From: an uncultured Candidatus Saccharibacteria bacterium
GTDB lineage: Bacteria > Patescibacteriota > Saccharimonadia > Saccharimonadales > JACDBH01
DNA length: 54,693 nt
NCBI GenBank assembly: GCA_964641015.1
Contig: CAZXJN010000005.1
Span: 1-54,693 of the forward strand
Reading direction: 5' to 3'
The position numbers and the translations under genes were made by a program. This document shows positions 42,032 through 48,279 of the stretch, piece after piece; position 1 is the first letter of the stretch; each line of letters opens with the position of its first letter. The notes under the pieces were generated by a model that worked only from the letters and a program-made list of their open reading frames with translations, was not told the DNA's origin and made no database searches.

Positions 42032-43906
42032 CTAATACAGAGCGGCTTCTTTGGGCATCTTGGACCCGTCAAGAATCTTCAGCACCTCATCCGCCTCGAC
42101 TGTCTCTTTCTCGAGCAGCTCGTCCTTGAGCGCCTCGAGCTTGTCGAGATTAGCCTCGATGACCATCCGCGCCCGATCGGCTGCTTCGGTAATCAAATGT
42201 TCGACTTCATCATCAATCAGCTTGGCGGTCTCGTCAGAGAATTGCTTGTCATGCACCATGCGGTCAATCATCATGCCTTCTTCGACGCGGAAAACTTGAT
42301 TGCGCAGCTTGCCACTGCCCATGCCTTGGTTGATGACCATTTCGCGAGCCAGTTCAGCAGACTTCTGCAAATCAGACCCCGCACCAGTCGTCACTCGATC
42401 ACGGCCATATTTAACCTCTTCGGCAATTCGCCCCCCAAGCATTCGCGCCAAAATATCCTTGTACTCGATGACGCTGTGATAACTCTTGTCCTCGGGCGGG
42501 ATAAACCATGTCACGCCGCCTGTGCCACCACGTGGGATAATCGTAACCTTGTGCACCATATCGCTGTCTGGCAGGACATGGCCGACAATGGCGTGCCCAG
42601 CTTCATGGTAAGCGGTCATCTCTTTGTCCTTTTCGGACATAATCTTGCTCTTGCGCTCTGGGCCAATTGCTACCTTCTCAAACGCATTAGTCACATCTGC
42701 CTGTGTGATCTCCTTACGGTTGTCACGCGCCGCGAGAATAGCTGCTTCGTTGGCAATATTGCTTAGGTCCGCACCACTGCTGCCTGCCGTCTTTGCAGCC
42801 AGAGCGTCCAGGTCAACGTTCTTAGCGATAGGCTTTTTGTCAAAATGAACCTTTAGAATTGCTTCGCGGTCCTTGCGGTCAGGCAAACCGATATTGACAC
42901 GTCGGTCAAATCGACCGGGACGCAGCAGGGCAGGGTCAAGCACATCTGCACGGTTGGTTGCCGCTAATACAATCACGTTTGTGCCTTGTTCAAACCCGTC
43001 CATCTCTACCAATATTTGGTTAAGCGTCTGCTCGCGCTCGTCATGACCGCCTCCCATACCGGAGCCGCGGCGGCGTCCGACCGCATCTATTTCGTCAACA
43101 AAGATGATACATGGCGCGTTCTTTTTCGCCTTTGCAAACAAATCACGAACACGACTTGCACCAACACCTACGAACATCTCCACGAACTCCGAGCCGCTAA
43201 TACTGAAGAATGGCGTGTCAGCCTCGCCGGCTACCGCCCGAGCAAGCATCGTCTTACCAGTGCCCGGAGGCCCTACCAGCAGCACGCCCTTTGGAATACG
43301 CGCGCCGACGCCTTCAAATTTCTTTGGATATTTGAGGAACTCGACAATCTCCTGCAGGTCCTGTTTTGGTTCATCAGAGCCAGCAATATCCTTAAAGGTA
43401 ACCTTGTTCTTTTCGTTACCGTAGAGTTTTGCCCGGCTTTTGCCAAAGCTCATCGCTTGATTTCCCTGACCCTGCGCACTCCTGAGCATAAAGAACAAAA
43501 TGAACCCGATGAGAATAACCGGCAACAGCGCTATCCCTAGCTGAGCCAGCACACCGCCGCCTTCGCTCGGTGTTTCGTATTCGATTTCTACTTTCTCGGT
43601 GTCAATACCATCCTCAGCAATGGTTGAGTTCGGATCTTTTTGCGACTCAATACTAGGTGAATCTTCACCATCTTTGGTGACCTCTACCCGACTGCCGGCA
43701 ATTGTCAGCTTGTCGTATTTGCCCTCGTTGGCTTCAGTAACTACCTGACTATACGGCTTGCGCTCAAGCTGGCTTGGTTGATTGTAGGCAGCAAATACAA
43801 CAGCGCCAATTAAAATAAGCATCGCTATAAAACCGACGTTTTTCATGCCGCGCTTGTTATTGTTACCTCCTGGTGTTTTGTTCGGACGGAACGATTTTTT
43901 CTCCAT
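42032..43906 (-). CDS. ftsH: ATP-dependent metalloprotease FtsH
   Basis: Two TMs, [25 protein letters not shown]. Confidence 0.98.
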
Positions 43907-43940: not shown

Positions 43941-44864
43941 CTACTGTGTAATTCTTACGAATTCTACATCACGCTTGCTGAATCTAACCTTAGAATTCGC
44001 ATCAAGCAACATCTCAGTATGCGGCTGCGCCGTGCGAATTGCAACAGTCAGCCTGTCTACGAGCCAGCGATTAAAGCCACGCTTGCCGTTCCCGCGCAGC
44101 CACTCCGCTACCAGCTCGGCGGCAACCTTGTAGGGCAAATGTACAACATCTGACCGCCTGAGCGCCGTGCGTTTTGGCTGCACATGCAGCATTGTTTCCA
44201 GATGCTTGTCGATGGCATTATTAATTTCGCGCTGCCGCCTGAGCAGTGCGATAAGCTTCTGATAATCACGGGGTGACTTTTGTTTCGCACGGTTAATCAC
44301 ACTATGGCGTACATAGTTGCGACGATACTTCTGGTCAGTATTGGTGCTGTCCTCGTTCCAGACCAGGCCGTTTGCTTCGGCGTATGAGCGGATTATCTGT
44401 TTTGGAGTATTTAGGAATGGCCGGTATATGCCGCCTTGGTTTTTCAGAGATGACAGGCCCTTCCTGCCGGTACCACGGATCAGGTTAAGAATTGCTGTCT
44501 CTACCACATCATCGTGGTGGTGGGCGGTGACTATACCCCGGGCGCCGCTATGGCTTTGGACTTTCCTTAGGAATTCATAACGTGCCCGTCGGGCCAGGTC
44601 CTCGCTGGCATCGTGCCCTAGCTTGCCCTCTTCAAAAACGAACGGCAGGCCAAGCTTCCTGGCAACTTCGCTTACTAATTGCCTGTCCAGATGCGAATCA
44701 TCCCGTATCCCATGGTCAAAATGTGCTGCCGTGAACCTTAAAGGAACAGATTTGTCATGATGATGCTGGGCCAGGATATGCATAAGCGTCATCGAATCAA
44801 CGCCGCCGCTCACTGCGACAACATAGTGGCCTGGGTCTAGTTTGATTGCTTTTGTGATATCCAT
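43941..44864 (-). CDS. tilS: tRNA(Ile2)-lysidine synthetase TilS
   Basis: AVSGGVDS, HFDHGIR, RRARYEFL, TAHHHDD, RGTG, DSTN...RNYVRH. Confidence 0.95.
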   Translation of the reverse strand: MDITKAIKLDPGHYVVAVSGGVDSMTLMHILAQHHHDKSVPLRFTAAHFDHGIRDDSHLDRQLVSEVARKLGLPFVFEEGKLGHDASEDLARRARYEFLRKVQSHSGARGIVTAHHHDDVVETAILNLIRGTGRKGLSSLKNQGGIYRPFLNTPKQIIRSYAEANGLVWNEDSTNTDQKYRRNYVRHSVINRAKQKSPRDYQKLIALLRRQREINNAIDKHLETMLHVQPKRTALRRSDVVHLPYKVAAELVAEWLRGNGKRGFNRWLVDRLTVAIRTAQPHTEMLLDANSKVRFSKRDVEFVRITQ

Positions 44865-44924
44865 CCTACTCACATAATAATCTAAAACTACTCTATTTGC
44901 TTATGCTATATGGATTTTTGGGTA

Positions 44925-46624: not shown

Positions 46625-46996
46625 ATGGAAGATTCTGATTTTGATGAATTAGTCTGCAGGCTCCAGCAGGACGACGGCCCCTTCCAGGAGCTTAAATCCA
46701 CGCTAAAAATCATCGGCGACAAATGGTCGGTTTTGATCCTCGTCTGCATATTCAATCGTATAAGCCGGTTCCACGAAATTGAAGAAGCCCTGCCGAATCT
46801 AAATCCCCGCACGCTATCTAAGCGGCTGAAGAATCTTGAGGCCAACGGGCTGATCACCAAGCAGGTCTTCCGCGAATTCCCGCCGCGCACCGTCTACAAC
46901 CCGACGCAAAAGGCCCATGATTTGCGCGCGGCAATCACCGAGCTTCGCAAATGGGCCCGCAAATACCACCGCGAAGATCGCACAGGCTGGGCTTAG
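46625..46996 (+). CDS. HxlR-family winged-helix transcriptional regulator
   Basis: IIGDKWSVLIL, RFHEI, RTLSKRLK.LE..GLI, PPRT.Y. Confidence 0.93.
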   Translation: MEDSDFDELVCRLQQDDGPFQELKSTLKIIGDKWSVLILVCIFNRISRFHEIEEALPNLNPRTLSKRLKNLEANGLITKQVFREFPPRTVYNPTQKAHDLRAAITELRKWARKYHREDRTGWA

Positions 46997-47042
46997 TTTG
47001 CGGGGGCTAGATTTTAGGCTGGATATATGCTATATTTACCCC

Positions 47043-47251
47043 TGTTCCTCAGCAATGTTTTCAAGAATTCGGGAGGAGGAAGCTCACTAGGGATTTCTAA
47101 AACTGCCCCCGTACATATGTTTGTCTAAACAAGTTTTTCAAACCAAGCGGCCTGTCCGCTGTTTGGAAAACTTAGAGGAGAAACATAGGCACTAGGCCGA
47201 AGCTTTTGACGGTTTGCCGGCAAAACGAGGCAGGTGCGTGAGTTTCGACGA
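47043..47251 (+). ncRNA. Highly structured unannotated RNA/leader abutting the split tRNA
   Basis: Extended -10 TGcTATATT at 47028-47036; stems 47079-87/47238-46, 47117-22/47181-86, 47131-37/47167-73, 47146-50/47156-60. Confidence 0.45.
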
Positions 47252-47529
47252 GGCAAGGTAGCTCAGTTGGTTAGAGCACAGTGATTTAAAAATCTGTTTT
47301 GGGGCGGCGTAGCTCAGTTGGTTAGAGCACAGGACTCATAAGCCTGGGGTCACTGGTTCAAGTCCAGTCGCCGCTACCAAAATAGGTTTTTAAGCAAGAC
47401 TCATAATCGAGCGATTAGCGAGATTATATGCAGAACCCAAGAAATCCATTCCATAGAAAAGAAATAGATTTCTTGGCGTGAAGCTATATAAGCCTGGGGT
47501 CGCGGGTTCAAGTCCCGCCCTTGCTACCA
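47252..47529 (+). tRNA. Split tRNA(CAU): segments 47252-47281 + 47398-47405 + 47491-47529 join into a 77-nt tRNA
   Basis: Acceptor GGCAAGG/CCTTGCT-A-CCA, intact D and T arms; joined anticodon arm identical to the inner tRNA. Confidence 0.7.
47303..47379 (+). tRNA. tRNA-Met(CAT), elongator-like, nested inside the split tRNA
   Basis: GGCGGCG...CTCATAA...GGTTCAAGTCC...CGCCGCT-A-CCA, 77 nt; G1:U72, A31:G39 mismatch. Confidence 0.93.
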
Positions 47530-47559
47530 GAATTTTTTAATGAATTTCGACTGAAGAAT

Positions 47560-47591
47560 GGTCACTGGTTCAAATCCAGTCGCCGCTACCA
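47560..47591 (+). repeat. 32-nt copy of the 3' end of the inner tRNA-Met (att-like)
   Basis: GGTCACTGGTTCAAATCCAGTCGCCGCTACCA versus 47348-47379, one mismatch in the T-loop. Confidence 0.85.
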
Positions 47592-47599
47592 GAAAAATC

Positions 47600-47627
47600 A
47601 CCTCGCTTTAAAAAGTGAGGTTTTTTT
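47600..47627 (+). terminator. Intrinsic terminator of the tRNA locus
   Basis: ACCTCGCTTT-aa-AAAGTGAGGT followed by a T tract. Confidence 0.8.
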
Positions 47628-48279
47628 AATTTTGATTTGTCATAATTTCCCGCAGCTTGCGGCGGGCCCGATGAAGCCTCACCTTCGCGGCTGTTTCGGA
47701 TATACCCAGCTCCTTTGCAATATCTGCGTGTGTAAGATCGTAAATATCCCGTAGTACCACCACCTTTCTAAGGTTTGGCCTGAGCGACTGGAGTGCAGCC
47801 TGAAGCTTTCTTTGAAGCATAGAATTTTCTGCCGCTTCTTCTTCACCGCCCGATATTCCAAAAGTTTTCTCGGGGACATCATCGAAGTCTGCGTGAGAGT
47901 GGCGTTTTCTTTTTTTATAATGGTTGCTTGATGTGTTGGCCACAATCCTATACATCCAGGTGGAAAATTCAGATTCACTCCTGAATTTGGGCAATCCCTG
48001 CCAGGCCCTGCGGTATGACTCTTGCAATACATCTTCGGCATCAGCATCATTTTCAGCTAGCCTGCGCGCAAGGGTGTAGACATCACGAAAAGTAAGGCGC
48101 ACCACTTCATCAAACTCACTGCGGGCGGCCTGTTTGTAGTGCTCGCTCTGCGCAAGGTCAGAAGCCTCTATGCAAGCCTGTTCCTGCGCAAGATTTTCTT
48201 GGGCCGAGGCAACAAGCTGCCTTACTCTCTGCTTTTCTGCTGACTCTGGGCCAGCCTTCGGATAACTAGCTTCTGACAT
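47626..48279 (-). CDS. ECF (sigma-24/RpoE-type) sigma factor
   Basis: DAEDVLQESY..AW, FSTWMYRIV.N (region 2); VVVLRDI..LT..DIA..LGISETAAKVRLHRAR (region 4). Confidence 0.93.
   Translation of the reverse strand: MSEASYPKAGPESAEKQRVRQLVASAQENLAQEQACIEASDLAQSEHYKQAARSEFDEVVRLTFRDVYTLARRLAENDADAEDVLQESYRRAWQGLPKFRSESEFSTWMYRIVANTSSNHYKKRKRHSHADFDDVPEKTFGISGGEEEAAENSMLQRKLQAALQSLRPNLRKVVVLRDIYDLTHADIAKELGISETAAKVRLHRARRKLREIMTNQN

Follow-up and report, generated by a model that had tools for sequence, protein, structure and literature searches.

What becomes of a transfer RNA (tRNA) gene when a second, complete tRNA gene lies inside it? The question is raised by a locus at positions 47252-47529 of contig CAZXJN010000005.1 (GenBank assembly GCA_964641015.1), from an uncultured Candidatus Saccharibacteria bacterium. 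The whole stretch analysed, 54,693 nucleotides (nt) long, is called the window below. Three pieces of an elongator-type tRNA-Met gene (the outer gene) are separated here by two inserts, the first of which carries an intact tRNA-Met gene (the inner gene) on a long helical stalk. At a probability of roughly 0.55, we favour the reading that the locus gives one precursor, from which the inner tRNA is released by way of the stalk and normal end processing, and that the outer pieces are left as an unspliced shell. The inner gene is almost certainly the working elongator tRNA-Met, and the inserts very probably arrived as successive DNA insertions.

Architecture of the nested gene

How do the two genes fit together? 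When 47252-47281 (GGCAAGGTAGCTCAGTTGGTTAGAGCACAG), 47398-47405 (GACTCATA) and 47491-47529 (AGCCTGGGGTCGCGGGTTCAAGTCCCGCCCTTGCTACCA) are joined, they make a perfect cloverleaf of 77 nt with the anticodon CAU, just as an earlier note, written from the bare sequence, had proposed. ARAGORN reads the joined sequence as a canonical tRNA(CAU) with a 7-base-pair (bp) acceptor stem that includes a G1.U72 pair, a D arm, a T arm (GCGGG/CCCGC), U33, A73 and CCA. The part specific to the outer gene at its 3' side is GTCGCGGGTTCAAGTCCCGCCCTTGCT, and the outer 3' end at 47529 reads CCTTGCTACCA. The intact tRNA-Met that the same note placed at 47303-47379, inside insert 1, is recovered by both ARAGORN and Rfam, and it is the only gene that either program detects at the locus. 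Its best Escherichia coli match is tRNA-Met, and it is identical or nearly identical to the sole contiguous tRNA-Met of relatives that lack the nest. The parts are arranged as follows; G010 is a relative from a different genus of the same family and G003 is another relative.

47252..47278, + strand: outer piece 1, comprising the acceptor 5' strand GGCAAGG, the D arm and position 26; the same in G010, with a decayed copy in G003
47279..47281, + strand: CAG; these are outer positions 27-29, or else the left one of two copies of a duplicated 3-bp target (right copy CAA, 47395-47397)
47282..47302, + strand: left arm of the insert 1 stalk, 21 nt, pairing with 47377-47396
47303..47379, + strand: inner complete elongator tRNA-Met(CAU), almost certainly the working gene (ARAGORN; Rfam, 67.7 bits)
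47380..47394, + strand: right arm of the insert 1 stalk, 15 nt, from the fold and the comparison with G010
47395..47402, + strand: CAA and GACTC, the outer anticodon-stem 5' strand and the start of the anticodon loop; the same in G010
47403..47487, + strand: insert 2, a type-A structured mini-element of two hairpins and an internal loop, whose opening ATAA doubles as outer positions 35-38
47488..47529, + strand: outer piece 3, comprising ATAA, the anticodon-stem 3' strand, the variable loop, the T arm GCGGG/CCCGC, CCTTGCT and ACCA

Where exactly do the inserts begin and end? The boundary of insert 1 is ambiguous because the CAG at 47279-47281 recurs as CAA at 47395-47397. Position 29/30, as the earlier note had it, yields a perfect stem; 26/27 is the placement seen in relatives. 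The borders of insert 2 are ambiguous in the same manner, ATAA standing both at 47403-47406 and at 47488-47491 with an 81-nt structured body between the copies.

The stem on which the inner tRNA sits had been put at 14 bp, extendable to about 17. The stem stands and its length is revised: 47285-47302 pairs with 47377-47394 over 18 bp, including three G.U pairs and engaging the inner CCA, and two further pairs beyond a 1-nt bulge bring the stalk to 18-20 bp. For the 278-nt gene the predicted folding energy is -100.4 kcal/mol (z = -5.7); the acceptor, D and T arms of the outer gene, the stalk topped by the inner cloverleaf, and the insert-2 hairpins can all be recognised in the fold.

Recurrence among relatives

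Is this arrangement peculiar to one genome? We searched 60 relatives, scanned species-representative genomes with two patterns and also scanned metagenomes. The nest search pattern demanded an intact D arm in piece 1, and the sample is therefore skewed toward intact shells, as we call the outer pieces taken together. The same nested design, with diverged sequences, occurs in at least 10 independent Saccharibacteria assemblies, some of it on long contigs. It is present in G010, in G054 (a different family) and at L036, L038, L039, L042, L043 and L194. The metagenome scan gave a single locus, on contig L359, where a stalk of another type is inserted at position 30/31. At L037 and L203 the stalk and the inner tRNA are kept and the outer 3' part has decayed. 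In the present assembly several contig breaks do coincide with tRNA genes, and a tRNA-Glu appears twice across one scaffold gap, which would suit an artefact of collapsed or chimeric tRNA repeats. However, because the same design recurs, diverged, in independent assemblies, misassembly and chance are excluded, and the probability that we assign to such an artefact is negligible.

Eight of the 11 nest loci have ftsH and a tilS-like PP-loop ATPase gene upstream, in a gene order that is kept across families; we therefore regard these eight as one orthologous locus. The earlier note was right to place tilS nearby. Within the window the two genes lie upstream of the nest:

42032-43906: ftsH
43941-44873: tilS-like PP-loop ATPase gene

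Most relatives have un-nested, contiguous tRNA-Met genes. As for the GGCAAGG-type tRNA, whose contiguity in relatives the earlier note had suggested surveying, interrupted copies and a contiguous one (L293) were found. A loose pattern for the 3' side of the nest returned false positives and added nothing among the matches listed.

Marks of DNA insertion

Do the inserts look like DNA that entered a tRNA gene? Repeats flank them. Insert 1 lies between perfect CAG copies in L194 and between CAG and CAA here and in G010; the other loci keep the full 27-31 strand on the right side only, which gives a common boundary at 26/27. Insert 2 lies between two ATAA copies in five loci, the present one included, and between ATAT and ATAA in four. 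These repeats are short, and ATAA is also the own 5' end of stand-alone type-A copies.

A third insert, at 43/44 in the variable loop, is present in G010, G054, L036, L039, L043 and L194, whereas L038, L042 and the present genome lack it cleanly. In G010 it measures 113 nt and splits outer piece 3 between AAGCCTG and GGGTC. The alpha type of insert 3 is common to G010 and L036, which differ in both their outer type and their insert-2 type, and the beta type is found also in a nested tRNA-Ile(GAU) (L220, 3002-3300). Members of the beta family (..CAAGCAAGGAAAACGTAAAC-hairpin-GTTTAC) stand directly before the GGGTC of the variable loop and T arm in L220, L041, L039, L043 and L194. The reverse complement of the alpha signature (GCGTGAACTCAGAAG) adjoins a type-A motif in G008 (L029).

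Insert 2 is of type A, B or C among the loci and is absent in L037 and L359. The copy in the window belongs to type A, and similar stretches of about 85-92 nt occur elsewhere in at least 10 relatives, one to three per genome. The type-A motif (window 47403-47494 and L021-L034) is about 90 nt long, with the consensus GATGATAATCGAGCGATTAGCGAGATTATATGCCGAACC-hairpin-GGCGTGAAGCTATA and, frequently, a longer conserved context (GGGAAGAGCAGCC ... GAAACCCCGAAGGGGTGTCTCAT); compensatory changes affect 14 of its 21 predicted pairs. Rfam, run at gathering and at permissive thresholds on the region and on ten stand-alone motif loci, returned no family for the inserts. One type-A element follows smpB in G010. 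In G024 another is enclosed by threefold direct repeats of the 3' end of tRNA-Ser(GGA), the hallmark of integration at a tRNA gene.

With miniature inverted-repeat transposable elements (MITEs) the inserts share hairpin or inverted-repeat arms (the stalk, 47282-47302 with 47377-47396, and the insert-2 hairpins), copies at unrelated sites, and filled as against empty sites among relatives. With respect to integration of the integrase type, an orphan 3' tRNA fragment is present downstream of the nest (see below) and a neighbouring recombinase gene is not. A relic of successive insertions was among the explanations that the earlier note had offered. The flanking repeats, the presence and absence of insert 3 and the occurrence of the insert-2 family at other tRNA-linked sites support that origin; that the nest is a plain relic is argued against by its conservation in G010, to which we return.

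Is the outer tRNA spliced?

If the outer pieces were ligated by an undescribed route, the nest would be a true multi-intron bacterial tRNA, one gene giving two tRNA-Met species. The inner tRNA would leave by way of end-processing enzymes and/or RNase III, and the stalk remnants and insert 2 would be removed. Several features favour this. The joined pieces form a perfect cloverleaf complete with A73 and CCA. The insert sites at 37/38 and in the variable loop are position-specific across different tRNAs. Finally, a hairpin that pairs A35 and U36 of the anticodon with the insert is maintained by covariation (AATC/GATT, ATTC/GAAT, AAAC/GTTT); it may be likened to the anticodon-intron helix that is a feature of eukaryal pre-tRNAs.

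But would the product be needed? The genome has three contiguous CAU tRNAs: an initiator-like one (contig C5, 53974), the inner gene and one at 39277 of contig C8, whose best E. coli match is the CAU tRNA-Ile and which is thus Ile2-like. Since these cover the initiator, elongator Met and Ile2 roles, an outer tRNA would be redundant. The earlier note had left its identity as either Ile2 or a second Met. We reject Ile2, a role filled by the gene on C8; the Met assignment fits, the outer stems being those of elongator tRNA-Met genes elsewhere. A script turned up no other interrupted tRNA in this genome, and none that was the only gene to read an anticodon. ARAGORN, run on the assembly, gave no Asn, Trp, Ile-GAU, Glu-UUC, Gly-GCC, Ser-UGA or Ala-UGC tRNA. 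Four contig ends lie inside tRNA genes, of which just the T arm, acceptor and CCA are present (C1:27-50, C2:68955-68978, C10:35100-35123 and C20:28-51), and the missing tRNAs are at least partly explained by these 3' ends at contig edges.

Nor do the borders carry known splicing signatures. From sequence and fold, no bulge-helix-bulge (3-nt bulge, 4-bp helix, 3-nt bulge) is present at any border: the base of the stalk leaves 4 nt unpaired on its 5' strand and 1 nt on its 3' strand, and the sole bulge at the insert 2 junction is on the 3' strand. Rfam at E <= 10 over 46900-47800 showed no group I or group II core, just the inner tRNA and matches at chance level, and at 116 and 85 nt the inserts are too short for a group I core. 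The search for RtcB that the earlier note had recommended came out negative: E. coli RtcB and RtcA, used as tblastn queries on the 803-kb assembly (99.7% complete), had no match below E = 0.2, and an HSGSR motif was not found either. Archaeal-type splicing is accordingly rejected as far as it is testable, there being neither a bulge-helix-bulge nor RtcB. The multi-intron tRNA with a novel splicing route, the first suggestion of the earlier note, thus gains no positive support from signatures, enzymes or decoding need, and the decayed shells described next speak against it as well. We consider ligation of the outer pieces distinctly unlikely. Doubtful, too, is the wider proposal that Saccharibacteria or Patescibacteria possess an undescribed, protein-dependent maturation of interrupted tRNAs, in which variable-loop inserts would be taken out as well and the inserts would be introns derived from mobile DNA.

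Is the shell maintained?

If the outer pieces are an unspliced shell created by small mobile insertions, how should they evolve? Here several observations weigh against the reading that we favour. No transposase, integrase or recombinase gene adjoins the nest, and no second copy of the stalk arms or of the type-A motif was found in this genome. So does the comparison with G010. Between the two genomes four-fold degenerate sites are 33.5% identical and neutral sites are saturated; orthologous genes (55-87% amino-acid identity) border the nest on either side, and an alignment of the intergenic DNA around it is no better than one of shuffled sequence. Even so, all 77 positions of the outer exons are identical, as is the inner tRNA (77/77). 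The stalk arms are identical at 33 of 40 positions and insert 2 at 76 of 85, with changes that are mostly compensatory; the inserts overall are about 87% identical, and a Fisher test of exons against inserts (p = 0.0006) shows the exons to be the more conserved. A dead shell, vertically inherited, should have been erased by now, which leaves two possibilities, a functional shell or a recent exchange of the allele. Weaker is the evidence from nine distinct shells, a sample biased by the search pattern: acceptor pairing is 100% and A73 and CCA are kept in all of them. T-stem pairing in these shells is 95.6%, with changes on both sides in eight pairs. Full conservation of the exons against a background of saturated neutral sites, and acceptor and T stems that stay paired through two-sided changes, are also what ligation of the outer pieces would lead one to expect.

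On purifying selection the exons give a divided record: 77/77 identity with G010, yet decay in G003, L037 and L203 and loop changes in four shells. The GGCAAGG-type piece 1 of G003 has about 11 changes in 30 nt and the remainder of its shell is gone, while its inner tRNA is intact; because of the decay there and at L037 and L203, the shell is dispensable. Loop positions 32/33 are changed in four of the nine distinct shells (L039, L043, L194 and L359), with U33C in L194, and no such change was seen among the contiguous or inner tRNA-Met genes read. The stem variants need not have arisen inside the nest, because they already exist in contiguous genes. GGCGATG/CATCGCT stems occur in contiguous tRNA-Met genes of G007, G013, G015 and G017, and GGCAAGG/CCTTGCT with the same T arm occurs, among the matches listed, in a contiguous tRNA-Met of a Shapirobacteria genome (L293); the GGCAAGG acceptor stem is common in other phyla. 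Decay, loop changes and pre-existing stems all count against a ligated, decoding outer tRNA.

Could the outer gene then be nothing but a dead relic, whose intact look comes from recent insertion or allele swapping together with gene conversion from the inner gene? Decayed shells do exist. The outer genes of L036, L039 and L194 equal the inner genes of the same genomes, lineage-specific variants included, and L038 has a chimeric T stem; both point to gene conversion. In addition, the block of similarity with G010 stops at the tRNA borders, as expected if the exons served as recombination anchors. In the window, however, outer and inner differ at 10 positions, in five base pairs, so gene conversion cannot explain the conservation of the outer exons. 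Each of the six arm substitutions with respect to G010 leaves its pair a standard base pair or makes it one; four of those in insert 2 make up two compensatory pairs, one breaks a pair, and the others are unpaired or in loops. Such compensatory change implies structural selection over a long time. Furthermore, the gene order is the same on both flanks, yet the sequence is saturated up to the gene borders. We judge a purely dead relic unlikely. Either the composite is under purifying selection in the clade, or filled alleles are exchanged through recombination anchored in the tRNA exons.

A model for the nest

How might the unspliced nest work? Anatomy, recurrence, genomic position, border repeats, redundancy, absent splicing signatures and conservation pattern are direct observations; the processing route and the reason for the persistence of the shell are what we infer. 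The segment 47252-47529 would be one transcription unit, derived from an elongator-type tRNA-Met gene that small non-coding hairpin elements interrupted at the DNA level. Element 1, in the anticodon stem, is a long inverted-repeat stalk bearing a complete tRNA-Met; element 2, in the anticodon loop, is a copy of the approximately 90-nt structured mini-element family that occurs at other tRNA-linked sites in relatives; some relatives have a third element in the variable loop. To free the inner tRNA-Met, both strands of the 18-20 bp stalk would be cut, after which RNase P and 3' trimming would act as usual. RNase III is encoded in the genome and is therefore a plausible nuclease for the stalk. 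The outer pieces would not be spliced into a second decoding tRNA but would persist, in this lineage, as a tRNA-like shell of acceptor stem, T arm and D arm. Selection may maintain the shell, as the precursor would then fold and be processed cleanly, with the duplicated segments kept off the inner tRNA. Alternatively, the conservation may be apparent, filled alleles being swapped between lineages with the tRNA exons as homology anchors. We put it at roughly even odds that the shell still serves a purpose, be it as a frame for folding or processing or as a scaffold.

The earlier note had also suggested a natural tRNA scaffold. As a folding frame this is plausible and forms part of the model just given. 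A different version, in which the outer tRNA would lend tRNA-like ends and stability to the RNA of insert 2 as payload, we rate low. The insert-2 family covaries strongly, the copy in the nest is the only one in the genome, and in the G054/L039 pair insert 2 is better conserved than the outer exons (53/57 against 63/77). On the other hand, insert 2 exists in three types and is absent in L037 and L359, and its family resembles part of mini integrative elements. This version is improbable, hardly more than a long shot.

Surroundings of the nest

What lies on either side of the nest? Three further features belong to it or adjoin it:

47130..47251, + strand: leader element, ending in TTTCGACGA right before the outer 5' end; 86-90% matches in relatives
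47560..47591, + strand: orphan 3' fragment of an inner-type tRNA-Met, from variable loop to CCA, 32 nt
47600..47627, + strand: intrinsic terminator, the only one 3' of the nest

Matches to about 100 nt of the leader element (86-90%) stand upstream of tRNA genes in G002 (two copies, before tRNA-Lys(CUU)), G028 and G045, and the element is also present in L042. No sigma-70 consensus was found in the leader region. The leader is probably part of the same transcript, or else the promoter region of the nest. The motif TTCGACGA occurs immediately 5' of several tRNA genes in the family.

The orphan fragment, which had escaped the earlier note, matches 47348-47379 at 31 of 32 positions and has the TTCAAAT loop variant known from relatives. 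It is separated from the outer 3' end by a 30-nt spacer, is preceded by the leader-like GAATTTCGAC and is absent in G010. We regard it as left over from a past rearrangement or integration.

A GC-rich hairpin and T run come after the outer 3' end, with no such signal behind the inner tRNA, in the eight relatives whose outer 3' piece is both intact and readable (G010/L040, G054/L041, L036, L038, L039, L042, L043 and L194), as judged by eye, without a terminator scan. Neighbouring genes encode an MFS transporter, an ECF sigma factor, a NUDIX protein and a SHOCT protein.

Other interrupted or partial tRNA genes

Are tRNA genes nested elsewhere? Single-insert nests of one tRNA in another, with the insert in the anticodon loop and with other stalk families, are widespread in Patescibacteria (L155-L237; examples are L164, L166, L211, L226 and L237, and L172, L198, L208, L222 and L223). 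Two stalk families recur, TCACCCCG...CGGGGCA(A/G) and ACCTGCCCGCC...GGCAGGCGGGT. The inner copies read Val, Ile or Met, besides others that are untyped. At L178 the nesting is several levels deep. Because standard tRNA finders detect the inner gene only, such loci are invisible in annotations of Patescibacteria.

Within the present genome, C10:30779-30955 holds the 5' two thirds of a tRNA-Gly(UCC) with an altered anticodon region, together with about 120 nt of unrelated sequence; this partial gene is preceded by TTCGACGC and lies just upstream of an intact tRNA-Gly(UCC). At C6:12929-13083 tRNA-Glu(CUC) sequence is duplicated on the two sides of a run of N, a scaffolding artefact and no nest. 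The intron mode of ARAGORN, applied to the whole genome, gave mostly spurious candidates, which we discarded: it joined the inner 5' half to the orphan fragment and flagged the tRNA-Glu duplicate at the scaffold gap.

Significance and comparison with known systems

If the conservative reading holds, tiny non-coding DNA elements invade a tRNA gene and bring a spare copy with them. The positions so created (37/38, anticodon stem and variable loop) are those of archaeal and eukaryal tRNA introns, which bears on the long-standing question of a mobile-insertion origin for tRNA introns and split tRNAs. Conservation of exons and inserts between genera would indicate that a composite of this kind can become a selected RNA unit. 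Were the outer gene spliced after all, it would represent a new kind of bacterial RNA splicing in which one gene gives two tRNAs, and a living model for the origin of archaeal and eukaryal tRNA introns and split tRNAs. In the literature searched, neither tRNA introns nor nested tRNAs of Patescibacteria are the subject of any paper. Among the small mobile elements that home in on tRNA genes and leave a working copy, this intron-like arrangement is, as far as we searched, undescribed.

Which known systems come closest? Integrative elements and genomic islands that use tRNA genes as tyrosine-integrase att sites resemble the nest in their target, in the preservation of an intact copy and in border repeats of tRNA segments (47560-47591 here; the tRNA-Ser 3' repeats in G024). 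The nest differs in carrying a whole tRNA inside the target, in inserts of only 85-120 nt, in the lack of a nearby integrase and in its sites, which are the anticodon stem, the anticodon loop and the variable loop rather than the 3' end alone. Bacterial group I introns (tRNA-Leu(UAA), tRNA-fMet and the Azoarcus tRNA-Ile(CAU)) likewise interrupt the anticodon loop, but the inserts of the nest, at 116 and 85 nt, are too short and match no Rfam intron at E <= 10.

The multi-intron, split and tri-split tRNAs of archaea offer several interruptions, at 37/38 and at non-canonical positions, and a functional RNA inside an interruption, as in the Haloferax tRNA-Trp intron that holds a C/D box small RNA. 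Here, by contrast, the host is bacterial, no bulge-helix-bulge and no RtcB were found, the gene is redundant and the inserts bear marks of DNA insertion. Engineered tRNA scaffolds for recombinant RNA also mount an RNA on a helix, in place of the anticodon arm of the tRNA or as its extension, and the RNase III stalks of ribosomal RNA operons form a long leader-trailer helix around a mature RNA; the nest is natural, its cargo is itself a tRNA, and its processing would run along the inferred route given above. Finally, MITEs, mobile insertion cassettes and mitochondrial double-hairpin elements are small, non-coding and built of hairpin arms between short flanking repeats; like the inserts, they form multi-site families that are present in some relatives and absent in others. 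Their counterpart here carries a functional tRNA of its target's own kind and has no second copy in the genome, and the compensatory changes by which its arms evolve, with the locus staying fixed, point to a role at the level of RNA.

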